Assembly: GCA_002839445.1 (NCBI GenBank)
Contig: PGYB01000006.1
Location: 64,001-128,000 of the forward strand
Source of the DNA: Candidatus Riflebacteria bacterium HGW-Riflebacteria-1
GTDB lineage: Bacteria > Muiribacteriota > Ozemobacteria > Ozemobacterales > Ozemobacteraceae
Direction: 5' to 3'
DNA length: 64,000 nucleotides
The stretch's first letter is position 1; each line of letters begins with the position of its first letter. The translations under genes and the position numbers were made by a program. The notes under the pieces were generated by a model that saw nothing but the letters and a program-made list of their open reading frames with translations, searched no databases and had not been told where the DNA came from. Positions 2,089-59,393 of this stretch are shown here, piece after piece.

Positions 2089-4365
2089 TCAGCGCCTGCT
2101 AAATGCCTGAAAAAGATTGGCATAGTCGTCTGTCCACAAACTGCATGCCCGTTCAACAACAATTTCTTCCCAGCGCTTGTAACGCTTTATCGCGGCAAAA
2201 GCCGCAGGGTCTGAGGCAACAGCGACCCATTGCGAGTTGAATATTTGTGCAAAATCATACCAGTCGTAACGTAATGAGTATCTTGTCGTGATGTCTCGCG
2301 AAATCAGGCAATAAAGGCCCAGTTCGTCGCAAATGCGTTTGATAACCGGTGCCAGGTCAAAATAGTTGTTGCTCACGTGAAAAAGCATCAAACCATCCGG
2401 TCTTGTTTTAGACTGATAGAGACGAAAAGCCTCAGTGGTCATGAGGTGAAGCGGAATTGCATCAGACGAATAGGCATCTAAAACCAGAAGATCGTATTTA
2501 TGATCAGGGATGCCCTGCAGGACAACCCGGGCATCGCCAACATGATTTTTCCAGGAAGCCTTTGATTTTGCAAGATAAGTAAACAACTTTGCGTCTTCTG
2601 CAATTTCAACCACTTTCGGGTCTATTTCAAAAAAGTCGAAGTGCTGCCATGGTCGACCATACCAGGCCAGAGTACCGACGCCAAGCCCCACTACTCCAAC
2701 CTGACGAAACCGACGCCCGACCAGCCCGGCTCTAAACGCAGCTCCTATTGGACTTTCCCTTGAATAATAAGCCAGGGGAAAAGCCCTCCGCATGCTGGTT
2801 ATGCGTCGCTCTATGCCATGCATTGTTGTACCATGCTGCAGAGTATAGAAAATATCTGTAAGTCCGGATACTGCCAAGTCCCGGTCGTTTTCTTTACCCT
2901 GGTTGGTTACGCGAGCGACCTTGAGCACGCCAAAAAAACTCCGTGCAGTAAACACAACATCTGAGGCCTTTTTCATCTGCACAAAAGGGCCGGCGGCGAG
3001 AAGAATGACTAAAGGAACCCAGACCAGTTTTTGCATGCGAAAAAAGGCATCGATAAACAGCAACCCGAGCGGCACGAGAAAAATGCCGCCCTGTTGCGCA
3101 AAACGCCTCATGTTGCCTTCATCCAGCCATGCCATTGCTACCATTGCCAGCAGAAACAGAGTATAGATCACGCACTTTCTGGCAAGCGAAAAATCCTGAA
3201 CTGTTAATTTCCGCGACATCGCAGAAGCGAGGATAACGGCAACAAAAAGCGTCAATAAGTATTCTGCCTGTGTCGCTAAAAGCATGGGGGCCAAAATACT
3301 GTTGAACAGGCCACCGAGAACTCCGCCAACTGACATCCAGACATAAAATGAATTCAAAAGCACGGGTGCGGGCCGGTCGTTGGCAAGACGCCCATGAAAA
3401 TACATACAGATCAGGAACATGGCGAGAAGATGTAATGGTATCGTCAGCCACATGCGTTCGACAAGCCCGAGATAATACATGATCATTGCCAGCAGAGCTG
3501 TCGGATACATATAGTTTTCCCATCTGATTTCTCGCCAGCGCGGGCTGCGCGCAAAAACCAGAATGAATGAAATCAGATAAAGTGATAATGGGATTACCCA
3601 CAGAAGCGGCAAAGAAGCAATGTCGGTCGATATATGCGTGGTAACAGCAAGCATGGCGCTGCATGGAACGAAGCCCATGAGGCACCAGAACAGCGACTGG
3701 CGCCAGGTTGACTGAGACTGAGCCGCTGCTGGTATGACGCTGTCTGAAATGTTCTGCGGTTGCCGGCGCTGACCGGTTTGCCAGAAGACAATGCAGCAGA
3801 TGGTTACCAGGCAGGTTTGCAGGACATAAAGAGCTGACCAGAGTTGGCGTTGAACGGTAAGCGTCATGAACGGCTCAATCAGCAGAGGGTAAGCCAGCAG
3901 AGCCAGCAGACTGCCGGTATTACTAGCTGCGTAGAGAAAATAAGGGTCGTGCGAATCTGTTTGCCCCGCCTGCGAATAATATCTCTGCAACAGCGGTGCA
4001 TTGGCTGAGATCATGAAAAACAAAAAACCGATCGAAGCAGACAATCTGGTCATAAGCCAGGTGACCGGATTATTGACGGCCGACCCGGCGGCACTGATAT
4101 CAATATGCAACGGCAGCAGCATAAAACCGCCGGTCATCAAAAGGATATGCAAGGTAGACTGGCGCTGACTGCCTAGATAGCGCAGGGCCTTTTCGGCATA
4201 GAGATATCCGCCCAGCAGCATCAACTGGAAAAAAAGCATGCAGGTAATCCAGACCGCTGGAGCACCGCCCATTGCTGGCAGCAGAAGCTTGCCAACCATT
4301 GGCTGAATCAAAAAAAGCAGGAAGGAGCCGACAAAGATACTCAATGAAAAAATTGCGGCTACCAT
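2089..4365 (-). CDS. Polytopic membrane protein fused to a spermidine-synthase-like (PABS fold) C-terminal domain
   Basis: About 480 hydrophobic N-terminal residues with many TM segments. C-terminal segment VVGLGVGTL...DLLVLDAYSSDAIP resembles the spermidine synthase methyltransferase fold. Confidence 0.65.
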   Translation of the reverse strand: MVAAIFSLSIFVGSFLLFLIQPMVGKLLLPAMGGAPAVWITCMLFFQLMLLGGYLYAEKALRYLGSQRQSTLHILLMTGGFMLLPLHIDISAAGSAVNNPVTWLMTRLSASIGFLFFMISANAPLLQRYYSQAGQTDSHDPYFLYAASNTGSLLALLAYPLLIEPFMTLTVQRQLWSALYVLQTCLVTICCIVFWQTGQRRQPQNISDSVIPAAAQSQSTWRQSLFWCLMGFVPCSAMLAVTTHISTDIASLPLLWVIPLSLYLISFILVFARSPRWREIRWENYMYPTALLAMIMYYLGLVERMWLTIPLHLLAMFLICMYFHGRLANDRPAPVLLNSFYVWMSVGGVLGGLFNSILAPMLLATQAEYLLTLFVAVILASAMSRKLTVQDFSLARKCVIYTLFLLAMVAMAWLDEGNMRRFAQQGGIFLVPLGLLFIDAFFRMQKLVWVPLVILLAAGPFVQMKKASDVVFTARSFFGVLKVARVTNQGKENDRDLAVSGLTDIFYTLQHGTTMHGIERRITSMRRAFPLAYYSRESPIGAAFRAGLVGRRFRQVGVVGLGVGTLAWYGRPWQHFDFFEIDPKVVEIAEDAKLFTYLAKSKASWKNHVGDARVVLQGIPDHKYDLLVLDAYSSDAIPLHLMTTEAFRLYQSKTRPDGLMLFHVSNNYFDLAPVIKRICDELGLYCLISRDITTRYSLRYDWYDFAQIFNSQWVAVASDPAAFAAIKRYKRWEEIVVERACSLWTDDYANLFQAFSRR

Positions 4366-10216: not shown

Positions 10217-12208
10217 CTAGCGTTTGCGTTTGAAAAGGTTTTCGAGGCCTTTGAGCAGTTCTTTGGCGGGGTCGGTCTTTTTGGTTGCGGGGGCGGTTTC
10301 GGTGCTGGCTGGTTCTTTGCTGCGGGGGTTCAGGATATCCTGCAGTATTTTCTGTCCTTGACGCTGCAGGCCCAGTTCAAGGAGTTTTCCTGAATTGAAG
10401 CCGGGAAAGGAGGGTGCCGTCAGAGTGCCTTCGACGCGGCTCGGCATGTTGGCGGTTTTGCCGTCGAGAGAAATCTGCCGCAGAACCTGGCTTTTAGCTA
10501 CAGCTGCCGGGGAGAAACTGATTGTGATGTTGCCTTTCAGGCTGGTGTCGAGACCGATATCGCCGCGATAATCAGCCCTGCCGGCTGAACTTAGAAAATT
10601 CAGGTCGTTGGTTGTCATAATTCCCTGATGGAGAACGAAAGTCCCTCTCGCTTCGGTTATGTCGCCCGAGGAAAATTCTTTGAGGTTGACCAGTGACAGA
10701 AAAGGTGTCACGACTGGCGGCGTGTTGTATCTGCCGTTTTGCATGAGCAGACTGCCGTTGCCGTTCCATGACGCGAGGGTTTCGACATCGCCGTCTGCTT
10801 TTAAAGTTACTCCCACTGGCCCGGTAATTACCTGCTTCTGTGTCGTGTTGCTGTCGAGAAAAGATTCGACGCGTAAACCGCTGGCCCTGGCATTAATCTG
10901 CAGCTGAACCGGATGTTTGTCATGAAAAACCTTGCCACTGCCGTCGAGAGTGCCGCCGAAAAGCTTTGCCTGCGCACTGGTGATGGTAAAATCATTCCCG
11001 GCATAGCTGAAACTGGCGTTGACATCGAGAAACGGAAATACGTATGAGCTGCGATTTGTCGACGATACCGGCACAGCAATATCAAAGCGCGGAACAAAAG
11101 CCGATCCGGTCAGAGAAAACTTTGTCGCAGCGCTTTCAGCCTGCAACTTTGCTGAAAGCTTATGCAATTCTATTTTTTTATCAGGAATAGAGAGTGAGGC
11201 ATCGGTAATCGCGATGTCGGCTGAAACCAGGCCGTCAGATATTTTTCCGGTTACCGCCATAGTGGCTGAAACTTGTTTAATTTCAGGGCTGGCGTTGTAG
11301 ACAATAGAATCGACATCGTGCAGACCAGCTGAGAACGAGAACTGAAGGGGCGCCGCTGCTGCCATGGCAAACTGGAGTTCTGCACCAGTTTTGCCGCCGG
11401 TCAGTCGCAGACCGTCGATGCGGTCTGGCATGAGTGCCTTGATGATTTCAAACAGGTTTTCGGCCGACGACGAGTCAATACTCATCGAACCTGAAGCCTG
11501 CAGAGGCGTGAGCGCCTGTGCTTTCAAGCTGACCTTTACTGGCAGCATCGAGGTTGCTGTAGCGTTCTTGGCGCCGGGCAGAGAAGCGTTACCGTTGAAA
11601 TCGACGGCTAATTCTTTGCCTGACTCAGATCTGGTAGCCGTTAGCGCGGGCAACTGTAACAGCACGGTTTTATTGGATTTTTGTGAAGTTACCCGCAGCT
11701 CAAACTTGCTGCCAATAATCTTATCAAAAGGAAGGTCTTTGATGCCTGATTTAAGACCAGACGAGACCGGCTTTTTTATGTCGCCCGGCACCGGCTTTTT
11801 TATATCGCCCAGCACGGGCTTTCCATCGGCATCAAGACTTACAGTCGCCTTTAATGACTTTATATTTACTTCTTTCATGACCAGATTGCCGCCGAGAAGA
11901 CTCATAAAATCGCAGGTAGCAGACAGTTCTTTTATCTCAGCCGAGGGCAGTTCTGGCCGTGCAGGGTCGCCGATTTTGACACCGGTCAGTTTAACGGTCG
12001 CATAACTGATTTTATAGTCTTTGACGGCAACCGGCATGCCAGCCAGTTCAGAAATTTTCTTTTCGAACTGCTCTTTGATGCTTATGGCCTGCTGTTCTTC
12101 GGCAGACAGCATGGTGGCTGCGAGCAGCGCAAAGCAGAATAATGCGACGATAGCCTTCCAAAAAGCTCGCCTTTGCGAGGAAAAGGGTAAAGTAATATTT
12201 CTGGTCAT
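10217..12208 (-). CDS. AsmA-family protein (N-terminal signal anchor, long periplasmic beta-rich region)
   Basis: N-terminal TM anchor, size of 663 aa and overall composition are typical of the AsmA/TamB-like family. It has an internal duplicated GDIKKPV segment. GAGAGG RBS is present. Confidence 0.6.
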   Translation of the reverse strand: MTRNITLPFSSQRRAFWKAIVALFCFALLAATMLSAEEQQAISIKEQFEKKISELAGMPVAVKDYKISYATVKLTGVKIGDPARPELPSAEIKELSATCDFMSLLGGNLVMKEVNIKSLKATVSLDADGKPVLGDIKKPVPGDIKKPVSSGLKSGIKDLPFDKIIGSKFELRVTSQKSNKTVLLQLPALTATRSESGKELAVDFNGNASLPGAKNATATSMLPVKVSLKAQALTPLQASGSMSIDSSSAENLFEIIKALMPDRIDGLRLTGGKTGAELQFAMAAAAPLQFSFSAGLHDVDSIVYNASPEIKQVSATMAVTGKISDGLVSADIAITDASLSIPDKKIELHKLSAKLQAESAATKFSLTGSAFVPRFDIAVPVSSTNRSSYVFPFLDVNASFSYAGNDFTITSAQAKLFGGTLDGSGKVFHDKHPVQLQINARASGLRVESFLDSNTTQKQVITGPVGVTLKADGDVETLASWNGNGSLLMQNGRYNTPPVVTPFLSLVNLKEFSSGDITEARGTFVLHQGIMTTNDLNFLSSAGRADYRGDIGLDTSLKGNITISFSPAAVAKSQVLRQISLDGKTANMPSRVEGTLTAPSFPGFNSGKLLELGLQRQGQKILQDILNPRSKEPASTETAPATKKTDPAKELLKGLENLFKRKR

Positions 12209-13447: not shown

Positions 13448-13500
13448 TCGATTACGATCAGGATTCCGATTACGATTACCGCTGCGCTGAGCACGATTAA
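13448..13500. repeat. Weak copy of the CGATTA-hexamer intergenic motif (locus A)
   Basis: tcgattacgat...ccgattacgattacc...cacgattaa upstream of the cyclase operon. Confidence 0.4.
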
Positions 13501-28455: not shown

Positions 28456-28759
28456 GCTTTAAATCTAGCAAAAAATCCAACATTTTTAAACAAAATCATT
28501 CTGGGACAGCACCCTTTGGGAAAAGCGCACTGGCGAAGTTTGCACATCGCAATCGCATCAAACCGTCATCCTGCACGCAGTCGCAGGATCCAGAATGACA
28601 GAGAGAAGTCAGCAGAATGACGAATAGAAGGCATTAGAATGCTCAAACAAGGATTCGTCATCACTGCGCCCAGTCACAAAACATCTATTATACTTTTCAT
28701 AAAAGATTCGTTCACAGCAAAAGACTAGACACAGAGTTGCCGTTGCAATTGCCAGCAGC

Positions 28760-28831
28760 AGCGATTACGATTGCGATTACGCGCACGAAAAAGTAAACCC
28801 CAGAACAATGCAGAAGGTATTTACGAACGAA
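28760..28831 (+). repeat. Dispersed intergenic repeat, copy B (CGATTA hexamer tract plus conserved 17-mer AGGTATTTACGAACGAA)
   Basis: cagcgattacgattgcgattacgcgcacgaaaaagtaaa...caatgcagaaggtatttacgaacgaa. It is about 75% identical to copy C at 49989..50068 in the same orientation and abuts the esterase stop codon. Confidence 0.6.
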
Positions 28832-28832
28832 G

Positions 28833-29516
28833 CTACTGGCTTAGGGCTTCGAGAACCCAGGTGAGCGCTTCTTCGCGAATTTCTTCGGGCGCGGTGCGAT
28901 GGCCGCCCTCGAACTCATACCACTTTATCTGCCAGTCGAGGCTTTTCAAAAACTTGCGGTCCTCTTGCATCAGCTTGTAATTAAAGTCGGTCGGACTGGT
29001 TAAAAAGGCACAGACCTTGCCGCGCGGGTAAGTGTCTTTGTGCTTGAGACTGTTTTCATGAATATACCCGACGCTGGTGATTACCGCCGCAACTGTATCT
29101 GGATGAAAAAAAGAAAACAGATGCGAAGCCATGCCGCCGCCAGAAGTTCCCACCGCTATGATGCGGTCAGGCCTGATCGAGTATTGCACTGCGACGCGTT
29201 CGTGAATGAGGTTGCGCAGGCGATTGAGGTAGTTCGGTATATCCATGCCGTTCTTGATAATTTTTGACGCCAGAATAATGCATTTATGGTTGTCGGCGTG
29301 CCCGCGCCAGGTAGCGACAGTGTCTTTGGCATTGGCCGAAGGCGAAAAGCCGACGATCAGCGGATACCTTTCTCCAGCCGCAAGACCTTCGGGAACATAA
29401 ATCAGGTATTCATTTTCTTCAAAAGTGCCGCTGGTAACCGTTTCGTCAGCGCTGCAGATACCAGGCAGATAAGTCAGCAGAAAAACAACAGCTAACAGAA
29501 TATTGCAGATTCGCAT
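28833..29516 (-). CDS. Secreted alpha/beta-hydrolase (esterase/depolymerase-like)
   Basis: GTSGGG nucleophile elbow (GxSxG). Signal peptide starts at MRICNILLAVVFLL. GAGGT RBS lies before ATG 29516. Confidence 0.65.
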   Translation of the reverse strand: MRICNILLAVVFLLTYLPGICSADETVTSGTFEENEYLIYVPEGLAAGERYPLIVGFSPSANAKDTVATWRGHADNHKCIILASKIIKNGMDIPNYLNRLRNLIHERVAVQYSIRPDRIIAVGTSGGGMASHLFSFFHPDTVAAVITSVGYIHENSLKHKDTYPRGKVCAFLTSPTDFNYKLMQEDRKFLKSLDWQIKWYEFEGGHRTAPEEIREEALTWVLEALSQ

Positions 29517-29553
29517 ATTTACCTCTAACTGACTACGCCCAATAACGATGTTG

Positions 29554-29796
29554 TCAGTGCATAAGATACAAGGCACCCAGAAGCAGAGCAAGCACAATAA
29601 AGCTAACCAGCAGCAGTGAAAGCGCACCCAGCTTTTCGAGCAGGAACTCAGAATACGTCTGTCCATCGTCAGGAGAGAGCTTGAAGATAACTTTTATCGT
29701 GTCAATAATTACCGAGAAATTGGCGCCAAGAGCTCCGGCCATCGAGTCTTCAGCCTCATGACGTGAGCCCCCGGGATTTTTACGTCTAAGAAACAT
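29554..29796 (-). CDS. Small protein with a C-terminal TM helix, hypothetical
   Basis: 80-codon ORF with C-terminal LGALSLLLVSFIVLALLLGALYL. Confidence 0.35.
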   Translation of the reverse strand: MFLRRKNPGGSRHEAEDSMAGALGANFSVIIDTIKVIFKLSPDDGQTYSEFLLEKLGALSLLLVSFIVLALLLGALYLMH

Positions 29797-49988: not shown

Positions 49989-50068
49989 GCGATTACGATT
50001 ACGCACACGAGAGTGATTGCGAGCAGCCAAAAGAAAGCAAAACAATGTCGCAGGTATTTACGAACGAA
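49989..50068 (+). repeat. Dispersed intergenic repeat, copy C
   Basis: gcgattacgattacgcacacgagag...caatgtcgcaggtatttacgaacgaa. It shares the hexamer tract, acgcRcacga, aacaatg and the 17-mer with copy B. Confidence 0.6.
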
Positions 50069-53475: not shown

Positions 53476-54714
53476 ATGTCGTTACTTACAGTCGTTCCTT
53501 TTATCGCATGGTTGTTAACCATAGCCCTGGCACCATTATTATTCGAACACTTCTGGGAAAAAAATTCCAACAAGGCTGTGTTGAGTTTTCTTTTCGCGTC
53601 GCCAGTTCTGGCCTATCTGCTGACCCATAACATGAGCCATGAGCTCTGGTTGAGCACCGAAGAGTATTTTTCATTCATTGTACTGCTCGCGTCATTGTTT
53701 ATTGTTTCAGGCGGCATTCTCGTCGAAGGCGATATCGAGGCAACGCCGCGAAATAACATTTTTCTCTTCATCATCGGCGCGATTCTGGCCAACTTTATCG
53801 GCACCACCGGTGCCAGCATGGTGCTGATCAGACCACTGCTCAAAATCAACTCGCAGCGCACCCGCATGTCACATGTTCCGATCTTCTTTATTTTCATCGT
53901 CAGCAACATCGGCGGCTGCCTTACCCCGCTTGGCGACCCGCCGGTTTTTCTCGGCTTCCTCAAGGGTGTGCCGTTTTTCTGGACTCTGAGCCTTTTCCCG
54001 ATGTGGCTCTTAAACATGACATTTATTCTGACCATATTCTACCTGATTGACAGCTACAACTATAACCGTGAACCTGCAACAGCTCTCAATCGCGACGCTG
54101 CTGAAATTCGTCCGATCAAGGTTTCGGGAAAACGCAATACCTGGTTTCTGGTTGGCATTATCGCTGCTGTTTTCCTGCCGGCACCAGCAAGAGAAGTAAT
54201 GATGATCGCAATGAGCATGATGTCACTGCGCGTAACTCCTACTCGATGCCGAGAACAGAACAGCTTTTCATTCACGCCGATAAATGAGGTCGCCATACTT
54301 TTTGCCGGGATATTTGTCACCATGGTTCCCGCCTTGCTTCTGCTCAAGGAGCGCGGTGCCGAACTTGGCCTGACCCAGCCCTGGCAGTTTTTCTGGGTAA
54401 CCGGCGGTCTCTCGTCGTTTCTCGACAACGCCCCGACCTATCTGACAGACTTGTCGCTTGCTCAGAGCATGGCGGCCCACGACAGCAGCCTTGCCAAAGA
54501 AGTGGTTGGTATTCCGGCCGTGTATCTAAGAGCTATCAGCGCCGGCGCAGTGTTTATGGGCGCCAACACCTATATCGGTAATGGGCCAAACTTCATGGTT
54601 AAGACGATCTCTGAATCTTCAGGTGTGAAGATGCCATCATTCTTCGGTTACTTTGCTTATGCCTGCGCGATTCTGATTCCGGTTTTCCTGATTGACACCT
54701 GGTTGTTCTTCTAA
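53476..54714 (+). CDS. ArsB/NhaD-superfamily (ion-transporter) membrane permease
   Basis: About 11-12 TM helices. Segments IGGCLTPLGDPP and NAPTYL resemble NhaD/ArsB-type permeases. Confidence 0.6.
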   Translation: MSLLTVVPFIAWLLTIALAPLLFEHFWEKNSNKAVLSFLFASPVLAYLLTHNMSHELWLSTEEYFSFIVLLASLFIVSGGILVEGDIEATPRNNIFLFIIGAILANFIGTTGASMVLIRPLLKINSQRTRMSHVPIFFIFIVSNIGGCLTPLGDPPVFLGFLKGVPFFWTLSLFPMWLLNMTFILTIFYLIDSYNYNREPATALNRDAAEIRPIKVSGKRNTWFLVGIIAAVFLPAPAREVMMIAMSMMSLRVTPTRCREQNSFSFTPINEVAILFAGIFVTMVPALLLLKERGAELGLTQPWQFFWVTGGLSSFLDNAPTYLTDLSLAQSMAAHDSSLAKEVVGIPAVYLRAISAGAVFMGANTYIGNGPNFMVKTISESSGVKMPSFFGYFAYACAILIPVFLIDTWLFF

Positions 54715-54737
54715 AAGCGTCATTAAGCAGCACGCAT

Positions 54738-54770
54738 GCGGTCGGTGATATCACCGGCCGCTTTTTATTT
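54738..54770. terminator. Rho-independent terminator after the transporter gene
   Basis: gcggtcggtga-ta-tcaccggccgc stem followed by tttttattt. Confidence 0.65.
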
Positions 54771-54785
54771 GCGCCACTATGGGAC

Positions 54786-54864
54786 TTACGATTGCGATTA
54801 CGATTACGATTACGATTAAGAGAACGAGAACGAGAACGAGACGAGACGAGACGAGAACGAAACA
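54786..54864. repeat. Microsatellite-like tract: (ACGATT)x5 followed by (GAGAAC)x3-(GAGAC)x3-GAGAAC
   Basis: ttacgattgcgattacgattacgattacgattaagagaacgagaacgagaacgagacgagacgagacgagaacgaaac, 60 nt upstream of the first pseudopilin-like gene. Confidence 0.7.
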
Positions 54865-54926
54865 AGTCGAATTGATTGGCGCGGTTATGATTTCGCAGAC
54901 TGGCAATTTGCGGTATACTCTCAGAA

Positions 54927-55442
54927 ATGCTGAGCCACTACTCAAAAACTTCTGCGACAACACTGGTTGAGATTCTTATCGCGACAACGATTCTCGCGTT
55001 CACCATGGCGCCGATCGTCGCCATCTTTACCTTCGCCTCGCGCAGCATGGGTTCAAGCGTTCACCGCATTCAGGCGCAGTTTCTCGCGCACGCTGTTCTT
55101 GAATCGATAAAGGCCGAAGTTCACCGCAATCCTTCCGCGATCAATCAGTATCCCAGCCGCTTCGAAGTTTCGGCGGTGCGCAAACCGCTTGGCTTTTTCG
55201 CAACGTCGCGGGTTAATTTTTTCAACAACGTGCTCGGGCCTGACAAGCCGATCACGCCAGATTCGCCGCTCTACAAGGAGTTTGACCAGTTTCGCATAAT
55301 AGTTACTGTTCTCGGCACCGGCAAGGTGTCTGAGCTCAGTGTTACCGCCGAGTGGGCCTTTGACGGCAAAGATCAGAAGCTCGAAATAATTGGAAAAATC
55401 GACTCGCGACCGTACCGCTTTTCCAAATTCGAGCGCTATTAA
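54927..55442 (+). CDS. Prepilin-type N-terminal domain protein (minor pseudopilin-like) with Ala at -1
   Basis: MLSHYSKTSA|TTLVEILIATTILAF: a short leader, then the [FT]TL[IV]E motif with Glu at +5 and a hydrophobic helix. Confidence 0.5.
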   Translation: MLSHYSKTSATTLVEILIATTILAFTMAPIVAIFTFASRSMGSSVHRIQAQFLAHAVLESIKAEVHRNPSAINQYPSRFEVSAVRKPLGFFATSRVNFFNNVLGPDKPITPDSPLYKEFDQFRIIVTVLGTGKVSELSVTAEWAFDGKDQKLEIIGKIDSRPYRFSKFERY

Positions 55443-55446
55443 AGTT

Positions 55447-55944
55447 ATGCGAGAAAATCACGCAACAAACGCCCCGGCCCAATCGCGTCAAATCGTTCAG
55501 CGGCGCGCTTTTACGCTGGTCGAAGTGGTGGTCAGCATCGCGCTGTTTGCGGCGCTGGTCATCGTTGTCAGCTCGATGTACTCGTTTATCAGGCGCTCTT
55601 TTGTCAGGGTCGACAGCAAAAGCGCCGCGAGCTCTCAGATCGAAAGGTTTCTGCTGCGCCTTGACAACGAACTGCGCTCGGCCAGAGATGTCACTGTGCC
55701 GTCTTCTGACGCGCGATCAAACTGTCTGACCTTCGTTAACAAAGAAGGCAACGAGATTGCCTACGAATTTTCTGAAGATGGCACGGTAACGCGAATTGAT
55801 TTTCATAACGACAATCAGCGCGTGCTGATGCATGATGTTGCCAGTCTCAGCTTTTCGCGATTTACCCGCGGACTTGTCGAAATCTCGATCACGATCGGTC
55901 AGGTTCCGATTTTGACCGCGATTCATGTCTGGAATCTGCCATGA
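55447..55944 (+). CDS. Prepilin-type N-terminal domain protein (GspI/J-like pseudopilin) with Ala at -1
   Basis: ...QRRA|FTLVEVVVSIALFAALVIV almost matches the GFTLLEVMVALAIFA consensus except for G to A at -1. Start is either 55390 or 55447. Confidence 0.5.
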   Translation: MRENHATNAPAQSRQIVQRRAFTLVEVVVSIALFAALVIVVSSMYSFIRRSFVRVDSKSAASSQIERFLLRLDNELRSARDVTVPSSDARSNCLTFVNKEGNEIAYEFSEDGTVTRIDFHNDNQRVLMHDVASLSFSRFTRGLVEISITIGQVPILTAIHVWNLP

Positions 55945-56495
55945 CAACACTTGCCAGAAAATATTCGCGTCGCCAGCTTTCGTTACCTGCCACCGACAAA
56001 CGTGCTGGCATGGCCATTCCCATGGTGCTCGGATTCATTTTCGTCGCTACCATACTTGGCACTACGCTGCTGTTTCTGTCAAAAACCCGCGGCGCTGATA
56101 CGGTGCGCACGATCGGCAGGTTTCAGCACCAGCACCTGACTCAATCTGGCCTCAGCGAAGCGCTCGCAATAATCAAGCCAATGCGCATCTCTGAATTAAT
56201 CGCCAACCGCGGCGTGCAATGGAACTTTAACACTGTGCAACAGAACTTCGGAAACGCTGTCGGCTGGTGCGAAGTCACAGTCAAAACCCGAGGCAGCAGC
56301 GAACTCGAAATTGTCTCGACTGGCTGCTGGCAAGATCGCGACTCGCCTCTCCTGCGCCGCAGTTTTTCGTGTGTCGCGCGCTATTCAGAGACCAGGTCTA
56401 CTGAGTCAAACCTGTATTTAACTATGGTAAAGATAAATGGCGAATGGAAAGTCGGCAACTTCAGCGAAGAACTGCCAAAAAGCGATAACGAGTAA
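55941..56495 (+). CDS. GspK/PilX-like pseudopilin-type protein (no Glu +5)
   Basis: KRAGMAIPMVLGFIFVATILGTTLLFL follows the R-x-G-[MV]-A-[LI] pattern of GspK/PilX N-termini. It overlaps the previous gene's stop. Confidence 0.45.
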   Translation: MTTLARKYSRRQLSLPATDKRAGMAIPMVLGFIFVATILGTTLLFLSKTRGADTVRTIGRFQHQHLTQSGLSEALAIIKPMRISELIANRGVQWNFNTVQQNFGNAVGWCEVTVKTRGSSELEIVSTGCWQDRDSPLLRRSFSCVARYSETRSTESNLYLTMVKINGEWKVGNFSEELPKSDNE

Positions 56496-56505
56496 CTCAA
56501 GCTTT

Positions 56506-56541
56506 GCTTGAAATCTTGAATCTTGAACCTTGAACCTTGAA
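56506..56541. repeat. Tandem heptamer repeats (YCTTGAA) x4-5 immediately upstream of a membrane-protein gene
   Basis: gcttgaa-a-tcttgaa-tcttgaa-ccttgaa-ccttgaa, ending 16 nt before ATG 56557 and overlapping its RBS region. Confidence 0.7.
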
Positions 56542-56556
56542 AGGAACCTGTCTGGT

Positions 56557-56946
56557 ATGAAAGTGTTAGCTGTTTTGACCATGTTCCCGAATCTTCTGAT
56601 ATTGTTCGTTTCTTTCTACTCGCACCTCTTTGCCATACCCCTGATCAAAGATATGCTCGCCAAGCTGTCGCCACTGGCGCAGCAGCGTTACCAGGAAAAT
56701 GTTGTGATAACGATCAGCGGCTACACAGCCGAATTCTGCGACATGCTGTTTAACTGGTGGTTTATCATAATTCCATTACTGGCGCTTTTTTTAAACCTGG
56801 TTTTCTATCAGCTGAAGAAAACGAGCGAAATCGCCGCATTTGCCAGCGTGTTGTTATTGATCACGCTGGCTTCGACAGTTTCTTTTTTGAGCATGTCAGT
56901 GAATTCGCTGGCAGTCTTCATGCTCGTAGCCAATTTTATAAAGTAG
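56557..56946 (+). CDS. Small integral membrane protein, hypothetical
   Basis: AAGGAA RBS. Four hydrophobic helices. The ORF-track start 56530 is a TTG inside the repeat tract. Confidence 0.5.
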   Translation: MKVLAVLTMFPNLLILFVSFYSHLFAIPLIKDMLAKLSPLAQQRYQENVVITISGYTAEFCDMLFNWWFIIIPLLALFLNLVFYQLKKTSEIAAFASVLLLITLASTVSFLSMSVNSLAVFMLVANFIK

Positions 56947-57038: not shown

Positions 57039-58028
57039 TTATTCGCTGGTAGCCCAGTCAATGACCTTTTTGGCCCGCCACGGCAGTGACATCAGATTGG
57101 TTTTGCGCAGATGACGATGGAAAGTCTCAAGCTCTTTAAACTTTGCAGGGTCCGGGTTCCGGCCTACAACGGCGCTGAGGGCCTGCTGGCTTACTTCGTT
57201 CCAAGATTTAATCCAGTAGCGAAATTGTGGAACAGAGAGAACGGTCAGTTCCTTGACGTCTTTTTTGACCAGCCCCTGCAGCTGATTAAGATATTCTGGA
57301 GTGATAGCTCTGGTAACATTCTGAATACCGCTCGAAACACAGTTTGCTCCGAAAATATTGTATTTCTGAAATATTAGTTCATCACCACGATCCGGGTGTT
57401 CAGCTCTGAGCGCCCGCAGATGGGTCATGGCGGCCAGTCGCGCGCACTCTTCAACATGGGCGAGGAAAAACAGCTGCAGATCAAGTTTTTTCGGGTTCAC
57501 CACATGGCGGAATTTGCTATTCAGCGGGCTGCGGCTTTCGTAATATTCAAGCGAGAAAACGCGCATCTGAATGAGCTGCATACCAACAATGCCCTGAACG
57601 CTGAAATCCTTTTCTGGTCCGGTGCCCATTAATAGTCCCCTGATCTTTTTGGTCTGCCCGCTGCTATTTTTGATTGTGACTTCTTCTTTAAAATTAAAAA
57701 TAGTGGCAAAATGAAAGGCTCCCGGAAGAATCGGCAGATTAAGAATTTCGCTGCTGGAAATCTGATCGAGTCTGAAAGTGCCGCTCCAGAGTTCTTTGCT
57801 GTCATGAATACTGAAAAGCTTTACTGCCTGTCCTTCAGCTATGGCTCCAACTGTCGAAACTCTGTCAGTTTTGGGAAAAAGCAGACGTCGGGCGTAGCCA
57901 TTCTGCAGAACTGTGTTTTTAATGCTCTCAGCCAGGTCGTCGTTGCAGAATTCGAATCCTGATGCAAAGACCGGGGAAAGAGCAAGCAGAAGTGTCAGGG
58001 TTAAAACAAATTTCAATGTTTTTTTCAT
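57039..58028 (-). CDS. Secreted hypothetical protein, lower GC than surrounding genes
   Basis: Signal peptide MKKTLKFVLTLTLLLALSPVFASG. No recognisable motif. Confidence 0.55.
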   Translation of the reverse strand: MKKTLKFVLTLTLLLALSPVFASGFEFCNDDLAESIKNTVLQNGYARRLLFPKTDRVSTVGAIAEGQAVKLFSIHDSKELWSGTFRLDQISSSEILNLPILPGAFHFATIFNFKEEVTIKNSSGQTKKIRGLLMGTGPEKDFSVQGIVGMQLIQMRVFSLEYYESRSPLNSKFRHVVNPKKLDLQLFFLAHVEECARLAAMTHLRALRAEHPDRGDELIFQKYNIFGANCVSSGIQNVTRAITPEYLNQLQGLVKKDVKELTVLSVPQFRYWIKSWNEVSQQALSAVVGRNPDPAKFKELETFHRHLRKTNLMSLPWRAKKVIDWATSE

Positions 58029-58180
58029 CTGAAAATCTTACCTCGCTAAAAATACTAAAAATATTATAACAAATTTTTAGCCAGTCGTGTTGTATACCAA
58101 GTCCATACTTGACTACCCACTTAGCCTATTTTCCGCGGCCACGAAAACACTTAAAAAAATCTCCAGGCGTGAGCTATTTG

Positions 58181-58210
58181 CTTGCCCGCTTACCCGCTTG
58201 CCCGCTTGCG
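58181..58210. repeat. Tandem octamer repeats (CTTGCCCG) about 3.75 copies
   Basis: cttgcccg-cttacccg-cttgcccg-cttgcg between ChrA and the secreted hypothetical gene. Confidence 0.65.
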
Positions 58211-58253: not shown

Positions 58254-59393
58254 TTAAATCAGACGCAGAAGATAGCCGGCAAGTGAACCCCATATGACCA
58301 CCCAGGCGGCGTTCAGCTTTTTCCAACGATAACTCATGGCAAAAGCGCCAATGGCAATAATTAACAACCGCCAGTCTGCTGCCAACCCATAACCAAGATC
58401 AAGAATTACAGCAGCCATAAGCCCGACGGAAGCGACATTTACCGCATCAAGAAAGCGCGCCGCTGCTGGCGAACGGCGTAGATATGGCAAAACCGGGTTC
58501 AGCAGCAGAACAAAGAAAAAGGACGGTAAAAAAATACCTATAGTCGCAGCAGCTGCGCCTTCTATGCCAGCAATCTGATAACCGACAAAAGTTGCGGTTG
58601 AAAGCACCGGACCAGGAGTGAACTGGCCGATGGCGATAGAATCCATAAGCACCTGAGGGGTCAACCAGCCGAGTTTATGCACCAGCTCATCATTGAGAAA
58701 GGCGACAAGGACATAACCGCTGCCGAAGAGAACTGCGCCAATTTTAAGAAAGACCAGAAACAGATGCGAGGTGGTCACCGCAACCGCCGGAAGCGCAACC
58801 GCGCTGCCAGCACCGAGAATCGGCACCGCTACCTGCATGAGTGCGCCAACAGAGATTTTCGCCGGTGAGCGGTTGATCATGCCGACAACTCCCAGGCCGA
58901 GAATGACAGCAACAGCAGGCAGGCCCAGCAGTGAAAGAATTATGGCGACCAGCCCCAGGCCGGCAAGCATGCGACTACTCACTGCTTTGCGCCCAAGAGT
59001 GATAACCGCATTGCAGATTATCACAAGAACAGCGGCCTTGATGCCGAAAAAAAATGGTTCCACATCAGGCAGTGCGCCATATTGCGCGTAAAACCAGGCG
59101 ATCAGGCCGGTTAACAGAACGGCCGGTATGATGAAGCAGATTCCGGCAAGCAGCAACCCGGCTGCTCCAGCTCGAATATAGCCGCAGTGAATTGCCATTT
59201 CGGTAGAATTCGGGCCCGGAATCAGGTTGGTTACGCCTACCAGATCGAGAAACTGCTGCTCAGTCATCCATTGGCGGCGCTGAACGACTTCTTCCTGCAT
59301 CATGGCAATATGAGCCGCCGGGCCGCCAAAAGCCATTATTCCCAGCTTGAAAAACACTCCAGCAACTTCACGCAATCTGCAGAAATCAGTCAT
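58254..59393 (-). CDS. chrA: Chromate transporter (full-length, two CHR halves)
   Basis: MAFGGPAAHIAMMQEEVV... and a repeated GxxxFGGG-type half. About 380 aa with about 12 TM helices. Confidence 0.85.
   Translation of the reverse strand: MTDFCRLREVAGVFFKLGIMAFGGPAAHIAMMQEEVVQRRQWMTEQQFLDLVGVTNLIPGPNSTEMAIHCGYIRAGAAGLLLAGICFIIPAVLLTGLIAWFYAQYGALPDVEPFFFGIKAAVLVIICNAVITLGRKAVSSRMLAGLGLVAIILSLLGLPAVAVILGLGVVGMINRSPAKISVGALMQVAVPILGAGSAVALPAVAVTTSHLFLVFLKIGAVLFGSGYVLVAFLNDELVHKLGWLTPQVLMDSIAIGQFTPGPVLSTATFVGYQIAGIEGAAAATIGIFLPSFFFVLLLNPVLPYLRRSPAAARFLDAVNVASVGLMAAVILDLGYGLAADWRLLIIAIGAFAMSYRWKKLNAAWVVIWGSLAGYLLRLI

Follow-up and report, generated by a model that had tools for sequence, protein, structure and literature searches.

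Between a CitMHS_2 transporter gene and a four-gene pseudopilin-like cassette of an environmental, uncultured Riflebacterium lies a 76-nt tract of short tandem repeats (54788–54863). Positions are those of the window, that is, the whole 64-kb stretch of DNA that was analysed. The features around the tract are as follows.

53476–54714: CitMHS_2 transporter gene (Pfam CitMHS_2/CitMHS on the product)
54738–54771, plus strand: intrinsic-terminator-like hairpin (54738–54761) and T-run, at the end of the transporter gene
54788–54817, plus strand: (ACGATT)5 array, with ACGATT at 54788, 54800, 54806 and 54812 and GCGATT as second unit at 54794
54818–54863, plus strand: AA junction (54818–54819) and GAGAAC/GAGAC array, with three GAGAAC (54820–54837), three GAGAC (54838–54852), GAGAAC (54853–54858) and GAAAC (54859–54863)
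54892–54926, plus strand: promoter-like block, TTCGCA, 16 nt, TATACT, then 7 nt to the ATG
54927–56946, plus strand: pseudopilin-like cassette of four genes
54927–55442, plus strand: cassette gene 1, PilV/GspI-like N-terminus (PilV/GspI/ComGE matches weak and below cut-off)
55447–55944, plus strand: cassette gene 2, N_methyl motif and ComGF/GspJ-like match
55941–56495, plus strand: cassette gene 3
56557–56946, plus strand: cassette gene 4, with an AGGA ribosome-binding site upstream

Anatomy and setting of the tract

The earlier note had described a regular compound hexamer/pentamer tract at 54786–54864, with a terminator on one side and, on the other, the first pilin-like gene, whose start is about 60 nt away. 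Both the tract and its placement are real, the ATG of the first cassette gene (54927) lying 63 nt downstream of the last repeat, and only small corrections are needed: the repeats run from 54788 to 54863, the second hexamer is GCGATT, two A residues join the arrays, and an extra GAGAAC and a GAAAC close the second one, giving (ACGATT)5, AA, (GAGAAC)3, (GAGAC)3, GAGAAC, GAAAC. In an ACGANN register, the tract reads (ACGATT)5 AAGAGA (ACGAGA)2 (ACGAG)3 ACGAGA ACGAAA, with every unit beginning with A and carrying GA at positions 3–4. When ACGATTACGATT is searched for with at most one mismatch, eight matches are found in the window against 0.24 expected, a count reached by none of 100 shuffles, and an exact-periodicity scan returns only four perfect arrays of period 5–7 in the 64 kb, three of them within the tract. 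The tract is no assembly artefact, because it is found unchanged in six other assemblies and as a variant allele in a seventh. Its being a piece of a larger dispersed element was rejected, as neither flank recurs in the window or among the Riflebacteria loci compared.

The terminator-like hairpin has 10 pairs (eight of them G-C) and the tail TTTTTATTTG, appears in both the MFE and the centroid folds, and is separated from the tract by 26 nt of unique DNA. RNA of the tract itself folds no better than shuffled sequence (z = 0.39 and 0.61) and Rfam has no match anywhere in the window, on which grounds RNA structure or a known RNA family was rejected. The promoter-like block, the only sigma-70-like site in 54300–55300, begins with its −35-like hexamer 28 nt after the end of the tract, which is thus wholly upstream of it. 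No Shine-Dalgarno sequence is found upstream of the ATG at 54927, and the promoter of the pilin-like operon probably gives a leaderless mRNA, as suggested by the −10 hexamer 6–7 nt before the ATG, by its conservation in relatives and by the lack of a Shine-Dalgarno sequence. If transcription begins at the ATG (a predicted start), the tract sits at about −139 to −64, outside the −35/−10 spacer, outside conserved open reading frames and outside any mapped leader, a position from which no on/off mechanism therefore follows; were transcription to begin upstream of the tract instead of at the predicted start, the tract would fall in the 5′ UTR.

Other repeats in the window, all read on the plus strand, are the following.

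56515–56541: imperfect tandem array of the heptamer CTTGAAC (3.9 copies, 95% matches by TRF), downstream of cassette gene 3 and just 5′ of the AGGA ribosome-binding site of gene 4
58180–58209: imperfect tandem array of the octamer GCTTGCCC (3.8 copies, 90% matches by TRF), in the intergenic region that comes next
13449–13479: degenerate array of CGATTA units in an intergenic region elsewhere, with a terminator on one side and the next gene on the other
28761–28831: GCGATT ACGATT GCGATT ACG..., then a 31-nt block ending in GGTATTTACGAACGAA, directly after the stop codon of a minus-strand gene (28833–29666)
49989–50068: GCGATT ACGATT ACGCAC ACGAGA..., then the same 31-nt block, including an identical 16-mer, as at 28761

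The tract and the first two of these arrays, which are the window's only three clear tandem-repeat loci, cluster within 3.4 kb (loci placed at random would lie this close with P about 0.009, in a test chosen after the cluster was seen); the other three, together with the tract, are the four ACGATT-type sites of the window. The GC skew of the window is uninformative on the replication strand.

Variation between strains and comparison with relatives

Lookups by the flanking proteins yielded a single variant strain (Logan SRR22387815; 99.3% identical over 4.3 kb), and the variation reported here is that between one pair of strains. A comparison of copy number with a related strain, which the earlier note had put forward as a check, does reveal a difference in tract length in this one variant: 11 nt (54830–54840) are missing, equal to one GAGAAC plus one GAGAC. 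One unit is also missing from the CTTGAAC array 1.7 kb downstream of the tract, and these two are the only indels between the strains in the 7.4 kb compared, with two of the three clustered tandem-repeat loci varying. The degenerate CGATTA array at 13449–13479 has the same length in both strains, one SNP there perfecting a unit. Four substitutions are found within or beside the ACGATT array, in which the G-variant units are numbers 3 and 4 in the second strain instead of number 2. Their density at the tract (4/79) exceeds that over the whole 4.3 kb (p = 3e-5) and is comparable to that of another intergenic region in the same strain pair (7/255; p = 0.30), and a substitution hot spot was rejected for this reason; we take only the indels, not the substitutions, to be repeat-specific. 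The comparison of this one strain pair supports the view that the tract is hypermutable in the way that slipped-strand mispairing predicts. A flank-anchored pattern with a variable gap gave no matches in metagenome_contigs, a collection apparently without samples holding this species.

The tract is absent from all seven relatives' loci examined, two of which belong to more distant relatives. The promoter-like block, in contrast, is kept in five relatives with a 76–92% identical pilin-like protein, and in four of the loci, none with a repeat, the full arrangement of TT(T)CnCA, 16–17 nt, TATACT, 6–7 nt and ATG can be followed; one of these four has the same gene order, from transporter to pilin, across a repeat-free spacer of 96 nt. 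The CTTGAAC array is likewise not present in the relatives. To judge from these comparisons, the promoter of the pilin-like operon is older than the tract.

A polar class of intergenic hexamer arrays

Scanning both strands of 185,579 species genomes (596 Gb) for (ACGATT)3 gave at least 120 loci, against about 17 expected by chance according to our own calculation. Most of the matches listed are intergenic compound arrays in which, as in the tract, (ACGATT)n is followed by ACGA-type units; these units lie 3′ of the ACGATT run in 20 arrays and only 5′ of it in 3, and 112 of 131 arrays continue in the A..A.. register past the three seeded units (both counts among the matches listed). The class consensus unit is A-N-G-A-N-N, with 3′ units such as ACGAGC and ACGACA, and ACGAGA in the tract. 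Carriers belong to at least 10 phyla, among them Verrucomicrobiota, Planctomycetota, Acidobacteriota, Chromatiaceae and Riflebacteria (four of the latter among the matches listed), with several loci per genome, and their genomes are generally rich in tandem repeats of period 6–9. Cultured carriers include Lamprocystis purpurea DSM 4197 and Pseudidiomarina mangrovi ZQ330; Rifleibacterium amylolyticum and an Acidobacteriota contig of 5 Mb (JAXGLX010000002) also belong to the carriers. GAGAAC alone is not diagnostic of the class, because the matches to (GAGAAC)3 in a metagenome scan were mostly coding or eukaryote-like low-complexity DNA, with few class members (five loci).

Among the matches listed, inverted pairs make up 26 of the 75 intergenic arrays. 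They could fold into long imperfect hairpins near the 3′ ends of genes, and their layout is 5′-(NNTCNT)n-core-(ANGANN)n-3′ in 25 cases and the opposite in one. For one-armed arrays in the same set, the stop codon of a gene lies no more than 30 nt away in 15 of 29 cases on the ACGATT-3′ side and in 3 of 24 on the opposite side (p = 0.0035). Arrays face gene 3′ ends 80 times and 5′ ends 58 times; the gene calls behind these counts are crude (a longest-ORF heuristic). Between co-directional genes, 18 of the arrays listed are forward and 19 reverse. The 122 proteins flanking the matches listed show no enriched Pfam family and no transposases, and N_methyl occurs in 2 of them. The earlier note's reading of the tract as a device for surface-structure genes is not supported: arrays of the class adjoin unrelated genes, and the seven relatives do without the tract.

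The cyanobacterial STRR heptamers are tandem repeats of a short specific unit, and TAACTGA heptamer direct repeats occur between genes in Beggiatoaceae, Cyanobacteria and Bacteroidetes (MacGregor, 2015; PMC4679880). The ACGATT unit resembles both in standing in tandem at many intergenic sites, in scattered lineages, with no functional pattern in the neighbours. It differs from TAACTGA in being another unit and a hexamer, in the lineages that carry it (the PVC group, Acidobacteriota, Chromatiaceae and Riflebacteria) and in facing gene 3′ ends more than 5′ ends among the matches listed. TAACTGA sets are mostly forward-oriented and end within a few nucleotides of the start codon that follows them (PMC4679880); the tract, which precedes the promoter and stops 63 nt short of the ATG, does not follow the TAACTGA rule of a place directly upstream of the start codon, overlapping the ribosome-binding site. 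The inverted pairs, about a third of the class among the matches listed, recall REP/BIME elements in lying near gene 3′ ends. However, the stems of the class are tandem hexamers of variable number with no RAYT-type or other transposase associated, and the tract itself has no inverted hexamer array within 200 nt and no stable hairpin (z = 0.39). A repeat of ACGATT, in any rotation, was found in no bacterial paper of the literature searched, and as far as that literature shows, the class is not previously described.

Interpretation of the tract

On balance, we read the tract, with modest assurance, as a lineage-specific, slippage-prone compound microsatellite belonging to the widespread intergenic hexamer-array class, not as a dedicated switch of the pilin genes, and a role in regulating these genes is unlikely. 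It would have arisen or expanded in the spacer between the transporter terminator and the older promoter of the pseudopilin-like operon, and its length would change by replication slippage between units. The tract is presumably not transcribed with the operon, and because it lies outside the core promoter, changes in unit number should at most modulate expression, by shifting upstream elements relative to RNA polymerase, with no on/off switching. Its adjacency to surface-structure genes would then be coincidental, whatever the process or function by which the class is maintained. The closest described category is that of the LSSR5-11, long simple sequence repeats with 5–11-nt units (Mrazek, Guo and Shah, 2007, as summarised in PMC4679880 and PMC11868660), with which the tract shares units of 5–6 nt, a length beyond the random model, a non-coding location, a host that is an environmental non-pathogen with other repeats of period 6–8 and length variation by whole units. 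LSSR5-11 are, however, defined there by statistics and not by sequence, whereas the class of the tract is one unit family (ANGANN, with an ACGATT core) with one order and a polarity; no description of such a polar family was found in the LSSR work as summarised.

It is conceivable, and we hold it as a tentative alternative, that the tract has a function common to the whole class, its units being sites for a putative sequence-specific partner that marks intergenic boundaries. This partner could be a DNA-binding or nucleoid protein, or an RNA-binding factor acting on the NNUCNU-sense (minus-strand) transcript, such as a termination factor directed against antisense or read-through transcription. 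That a single unit recurs in a single order in at least 10 phyla is, together with the 25-to-1 orientation of inverted pairs among the matches listed, hard to explain by neutral slippage alone and hints at a sequence-specific function that might also act at the tract. The stop-codon bias of the one-armed arrays listed points the same way: with the stop codon on the ACGATT-3′ side, NNUCNU-sense RNA would be made right after it. In that sense the UC is invariant, and minus-strand RNA of the tract would be 76 nt long and pyrimidine-rich, the tract being unstructured. The bias was measured, however, with the crude gene calls, half of the listed arrays between co-directional genes are in the other orientation, the arms of inverted pairs lack co-variation (by eye, in one example), and the tract itself is in the other orientation, with no minus-strand gene reading into it. 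In the commonest unit C is not above G, unlike in a typical Rho site, and a Rho-type loading site was set aside as speculation.

A bolder form of this alternative appears improbable to us. The polar ANGANN arrays would be orientation-dependent intergenic boundary elements, (ACGATT)n followed by ACGAGN- or ACGACA-type units and in many copies inverted pairs facing outward from a short core, read by a conserved protein either on DNA or on NNUCNU-sense RNA made immediately downstream of stop codons. Their length would be adjusted by slippage, and the tract would insulate the leaderless promoter of the pilin-like operon from neighbouring or antisense transcription. The units of the tract may, as the earlier note suggested, be spaced binding sites.

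We also think it unlikely that the tract is a promoter-distal contingency locus, in which unit number would set the distance or phase of an upstream-bound factor or DNA relative to RNA polymerase and so make expression of the pseudopilin-like operon graded, heritable and reversible, in the manner of the TAAA tract of Neisseria meningitidis nadA. The earlier note had proposed a phase-variation device: the 11-nt deletion of the second strain bears out its slippage-type length variation, and the position upstream of the promoter block speaks against on/off switching. Of the marks of a contingency locus, the whole-unit length difference between strains is present and, given the predicted transcription start, an expression-altering position is not. 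The polymorphism in unit number between 99.3% identical strains, at the tract and at a second repeat inside the cassette, counts for such a locus; so do the tract's adjoining the upstream edge of the conserved promoter block and the tandem-repeat cluster around the cassette, which is what a contingency island would look like. A deletion of 11 nt, close to one helical turn, would moreover keep the rotational phase of upstream DNA and promoter, as expected if spacing mattered. Yet relatives use the same promoter without any tract, similar arrays adjoin housekeeping genes of every sort, and the organism is environmental and uncultured, without known host immune pressure. Mrazek and colleagues are said to have found in 2007 that long repeats of 5–11-nt units occur mostly in non-pathogens and are not linked to phase variation, a pattern that also weighs against a contingency locus.

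Two described systems sharpen the comparison. The nadA tract, a precedent for a repeat upstream of the core promoter with a strain-variable number of units, acts through differential operator spacing (Metruccio et al., 2009; PMC2791445). In that surface-protein gene of a host-adapted pathogen, however, NadR operators flank the tetranucleotide tract and an IHF site is present (PMC2791445); the tract described here shows no flanking operators or IHF site and no regulator gene in its neighbourhood, its left flank is only 26 nt of unique DNA after the terminator, and its promoter is used by relatives that lack the repeat. The (ATCTTTC)n repeats of Haemophilus influenzae hmw1A/hmw2A are comparable in being of the 7-nt class, upstream of an adhesin gene and graded rather than on/off in output, but they are transcribed in the 5′ UTR, where a long hairpin is cut by RNase III (PMC12721329), whereas the tract lies after a terminator and before the predicted promoter and has no predicted structure.

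Two further candidates are very improbable. The minus strand could encode a small hydrophobic peptide (ORF 54751–54963, 70 aa, including VLVLVLLIVIVIVIAIV), perhaps a membrane peptide resembling type I toxins, with the repeats as Val, Leu and Ile codons, and one minus-strand frame indeed reads all unit variants of the class as aliphatic dipeptides (GTA ATC, GTG CTC, GTT GTC, TTA ATC); but a T at each third base yields hydrophobic codons automatically, the three pentamers place Ser-Ser-Arg in the middle of the would-be helix, and the ORF shares sequence with both the promoter and the beginning of the pilin gene. It was rejected because the 11-nt deletion of the second strain shifts the frame, because the frame is no more open than others in 99 arrays among the matches listed (median 14 codons upstream and 25 downstream, against 21 and 23) and because it is random relative to upstream stop codons.

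The RNA site for the ring protein TRAP of Bacillus follows the rule (G/U)AG-N2-3, a TRAP-type site having at least 6–11 such triplets in a transcribed leader. The seven GAG triplets of the tract, separated by AAC or AC with spacings of 3, 3, 3, 2, 2 and 2 nt, fit this rule, but a TRAP-like site here is scarcely credible, since the tract lies after a terminator and upstream of the predicted promoter and so is probably outside the operon mRNA, most class units (ACGATT, ACGACA) hold neither GAG nor UAG, and most (GAGAAC)3 matches in metagenomes fall in coding DNA of low complexity.

With the tract read as a slippage-prone copy of a widespread array class, the result is mostly deflationary for the pilin-like operon: a repeat beside surface genes in an environmental bacterium should not be taken for a phase-variation switch unless evidence from position and population variation says so. 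Of more interest is that a single family of hexamers, its internal order fixed and its inverted pairs polar at 25 to 1 among the matches listed, extends from Verrucomicrobiota to Chromatiaceae and Riflebacteria without mobile-element genes, a coding signal or a matching paper in the literature searched. If the arrays are neutral, they would point to a sequence-specific slippage or repair bias common to distant phyla; should they have a function, they would amount to a new type of intergenic signal in bacteria, on a par with REP elements or the unexplained TAACTGA/STRR repeats and open to study in cultured carriers.

Anatomy and setting of the repeat tract

The tract belongs to an uncultured Candidatus Riflebacteria bacterium and occupies the spacer that separates a transporter gene from a four-gene pseudopilin-like cassette. 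Re-reading of the sequence and a periodicity scan bear out the regular compound repeat described in the earlier note, as well as its placement between a terminator and the first pilin-like gene (ATG at 54927).

Features of the spacer (window positions, forward strand)
53476-54714: CitMHS_2-type transporter gene, upstream of the tract
54738-54771: strong terminator-like hairpin with T-run, at the end of the transporter gene
54788-54817: five hexamers, ACGATT, GCGATT, ACGATT, ACGATT, ACGATT
54820-54837: three copies of GAGAAC, preceded by AA
54838-54852: three copies of GAGAC
54853-54858: GAGAAC
54859-54863: GAAAC

Read in a single register, the tract is (ACGATT)5 AAGAGA (ACGAGA)2 (ACGAG)3 ACGAGA ACGAAA. 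Allowing at most one mismatch, ACGATTACGATT has eight matches in the window against 0.24 expected, and none of the shuffles attains eight. When searched for exact periodicity, the 64 kb yield just four perfect arrays of period 5-7, three of which fall within the tract. Because the region is base-for-base identical in six other assemblies (ENA, JGI, Logan), the tract is not an assembly artefact. The 6-bp inverted repeat that brackets it (GCGCCA, 54771-54776; TGGCGC, 54877-54882) is paired in the MFE fold and is probably a coincidence, with a chance expectation of ~0.15 by rough estimate.

The first cassette product gives weak, below-cut-off PilV/GspI/ComGE-like N-terminal matches and is 92% identical to its counterpart in Riflebacteria bacterium GWC2_50_8, 78% in HGW-Riflebacteria-2 and 76% in Ca. 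Rifleibacterium amylolyticum; in the second, an N_methyl motif accompanies a ComGF/GspJ-like match. Between 54300 and 55300 there is a single sigma-70-like site (TTCGCA-16 nt-TATACT, 54892-54919), which ends 7 nt 5' of the ATG, with no Shine-Dalgarno sequence between. GGAG/AGGA sites are present at other window genes (Uma2, 50155; cassette gene 4, 56557). Given the positions of terminator, promoter and ATG, the tract covers roughly -139 to -64 as counted from the ATG, 26 nt from the terminator stem and 28 nt from the -35-like hexamer.

Relatives and a second strain

At the homologous locus, none of seven relatives has a tandem repeat upstream of the pilin-like gene. The promoter pattern TT(T)CnCA, 16-17 nt, TATACT, 6-7 nt, ATG is kept in all five relatives with at least 76% protein identity, which supports a conserved promoter from which the pilin-like operon would be transcribed, from the predicted start, as a leaderless mRNA. 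With the repeat missing from all seven and the promoter kept in five, the tract is a recent addition in this lineage, outside the conserved control region. In HGW-Riflebacteria-2, the same transporter-to-pilin gene order is found with a 96-nt spacer free of both hairpin and repeat.

The TATACT hexamer 6-7 nt from the ATG, without Shine-Dalgarno sequence, is seen in the window (54892-54929) and at ~2440-2503 in GWC2_50_8 (L009), a further relative (L015), Ca. Rifleibacterium amylolyticum (L016) and HGW-Riflebacteria-2 (L019). Upstream of the cassette, L009 and L015 carry a sensor histidine kinase and in some cases a PDZ protein, and the window, L016 and L019 carry an ABC transporter, a TPR protein and sometimes CitMHS; since gene order here varies among close relatives, cassette and promoter appear to move as a unit. 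In the GWC2_50_8 spacer 5' of the pilin gene (L009 2283-2429), a 48-codon minus-strand ORF looks like a gene fragment: its product (MGLVAIILSLLGLPAVAIILGLGVV...) duplicates part of the interior of the window's chromate transporter (gene at 58254-59393).

A second strain (L004, a contig of Logan SRR22387815) is 99.3% identical over 4.3 kb, and within the 212-nt spacer it departs from the window nowhere but in the tract or right next to it. Eleven contiguous nucleotides are missing (54830-54840: one GAGAAC, one GAGAC), A and G are exchanged three times where ACGATT units begin, and a C directly 5' of the array is replaced by A. Copy number, which the earlier note proposed to compare across read data or related isolates, thus differs in this one variant strain. 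L004 is also one unit short in a CTTGAAC array (56515-56541) between cassette genes 3 and 4; this imperfect heptamer array, which the relatives lack, lies directly 5' of the gene 4 ribosome-binding site. At the degenerate CGATTA array at 13449, the second strain has 21 SNPs in 3.2 kb, one of which perfects a unit, and no indel. The 7.4 kb compared for this pair therefore contain two indels in total, both whole-unit changes in tandem repeats, and on that ground this single strain pair demonstrates slippage-type hypermutability of the tract. The tract's substitution density, 4/79, is high relative to the region as a whole (p = 3e-5), with no excess over the pair's other intergenic DNA (7/255, p = 0.30). 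A metagenome contig scan for further tract alleles gave no match, the collection apparently being without samples of this species.

A wider class of hexamer arrays

A search of 185,579 species, each represented by one genome, for exact (ACGATT)3 gave at least 120 loci, compared with ~17 by chance (calculated for 596 Gb, both strands). Class totals are minimum values, and the order of scanning may have skewed the range of taxa. Among the matches listed, a few are coding (EDDYDYDF aminotransferase motif), and 112 of 131 arrays run on past the seed without a change of register, keeping A at positions 1 and 4; the extra units are mainly AGGATT, AAGATT, ACGACA, ACGAGC and ATGATT. The listed carriers include many Verrucomicrobiota, Planctomycetota, Lentisphaerae/Kiritimatiellae and Acidobacteriota, together with Chromatiaceae (Thiodictyon, Lamprocystis purpurea DSM 4197), Haliangium, Hydrogenedentota, Nitrospiraceae, Sumerlaeia and three Riflebacteria species (GWC2_50_8 with two loci, Rifleibacterium amylolyticum and an Ozemobacteraceae MAG); several listed genomes have multiple array loci. 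The GWC2_50_8 array, (ACGATT)5(ACGAGC)4, is built like the tract in the window, (ACGATT)5(ACGAGA)n, and in the listed arrays ACGA-type units lie 3' of the ACGATT run in 20 cases and 5' only in three.

Gene calls for the class statistics were heuristic (crude longest-ORF), and by these 79 of the 131 listed arrays are intergenic, many of the others sitting in short ORFs created by the arrays themselves. Still among the matches listed, arrays between co-directional genes divide 18 to 19 by orientation, and convergent spacers hold 14 arrays against five for divergent ones. An inverted partner array within 200 nt is found 25 times on the 5' side and once on the 3' side, hence the arrangement 5'-(NNTCNT)n-core-(ANGANN)n-3'. 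One-armed listed arrays have an opposite-strand stop codon within 30 nt of the ACGATT-3' end in 15/29 cases and on the other side in 3/24 (Fisher p = 0.0035; heuristic gene calls), with no frame preference relative to that stop. Among the 122 flanking proteins examined for these matches, no Pfam family is enriched and transposases are absent (N_methyl, 2/122). Carrier genomes are generally rich in period 6-9 repeats, with 50 further arrays >500 nt from seeded ones in 0.85 Mb.

In one Verrucomicrobia MAG (TH-08apr19-195, labelled Akkermansia muciniphila), loci L114 (~58-241) and L138 (~3631-3814) match each other over ~60 nt to the left and in ACGAGAAGATCTGGAAAAATCTGAGA to the right of arrays of 4+1+2 and 4 units, and L045 (~23-200) has part of that right flank; here the array is the variable core of a dispersed element. 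The window tract, unlike such copies, has unique flanks. In the Ozemobacteraceae MAG (L115, ~3850-3880, minus strand), (ACGATT)4 ends 13 nt 5' of a TAAAAT -10-like hexamer, with an ATG 6 nt further, and would extend across the -35 position of what may be another leaderless gene.

Within the window, imperfect ACGATT arrays are found in three further intergenic regions (13449, 28761, 49989), the last two of which also have a 31-nt block in common. At 28761-28831 and 49989-50068, short GCGATT/ACGATT units and an A-rich stretch precede AACAATG..GCAG..GGTATTTACGAACGAA, which includes a 16-mer identical between the two; both elements contain a plus-strand ATG (MQKVFTNE... or MSQVFTNE..., 13-18 aa), and the former directly follows the stop codon of a minus-strand gene (28833-29666), in frame with it. 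A 22-nt unit with CAGAATGAC (2.3 copies, 28570-28641) has the 15-mer TCGCAGGATCCAGAA in common with the spacer 5' of the Ca. Rifleibacterium amylolyticum pilin gene (L016 ~2350-2420) and may be another dispersed motif of Riflebacteria. The 24-nt tandem repeat ACCGGCTTTTTTATATCGCCCAGC (2.4 copies, 90% matches, 11766-11822) lies in or beside a 663-aa minus-strand ORF, and an imperfect GCTTGCCC octamer array (58180-58209) lies between a 329-aa gene (57039-58028, minus) and the chromate-transporter gene.

The window tract fits the long simple sequence repeats with 5-11-nt units, a statistical category which PMC4679880 and PMC11868660 summarise from Mrazek et al. 2007. Closest among described phenomena are the intergenic TAACTGA heptamer repeats of Beggiatoaceae, Cyanobacteria and Bacteroidetes, which are unexplained (PMC4679880) and from which the ACGATT class differs in unit, lineages and position. 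A full-text literature search with all rotations of ACGATT found no bacterial paper.

Possible roles of the tract

On balance, we lean towards the tract being a lineage-specific, slippage-prone member of the hexamer-array class, one that came to rest in a spacer with a terminator on one side and an older leaderless promoter on the other. Anatomy, absence from the relatives, whole-unit polymorphism and membership of the class are observed directly, whereas slippage as the cause, the start of transcription and the absence of a regulatory effect are inferred. The polarity of the arrays and the conservation of the unit across phyla would favour a class-wide functional element, either a binding array or a boundary element, which we regard as unlikely. 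Promoter-distal phase variation of the nadA kind seems improbable. In its favour, the three clear tandem-repeat loci of the window (54788, 56515, 58180) all cluster in 3.4 kb around the cassette (P ~0.009, tested after the cluster was seen), and the 11-nt deletion has the size of a helical turn. The precedents for regulation by promoter-upstream repeats, nadA (PMC2791445) and hmw1A (PMC12721329), require flanking operators or a transcribed hairpin, neither of which is seen at the tract. The GAG-N2-3 pattern of a TRAP-like site is present, but its location upstream of the promoter and the class unit make-up speak against such a site. Minus-strand coding (ORF 54751-54963, ...VLVLVLLIVIVIVIAIV...) was rejected: the reading frame is shifted in the second strain, the pentamers bring in Ser-Ser-Arg, the frame is no more open than others in 99 arrays among the matches listed, and all class unit variants are aliphatic codons in it automatically because T stands at every third base. 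The tract has no RNA structure beyond shuffles, and the window no Rfam match.

The earlier note had also proposed phase variation: unit number does differ between strains (one pair), but the position outside the core promoter does not fit a contingency switch. A device serving the surface-structure genes is not supported, given that position, also outside the predicted transcript, the relatives without a tract and the missing class link to pilin genes. On the array-class reading that we favour, unit number would drift by slippage, the tract, being outside core promoter and predicted transcript, would at most modulate the operon, and its adjacency to pilin-like genes would be incidental.
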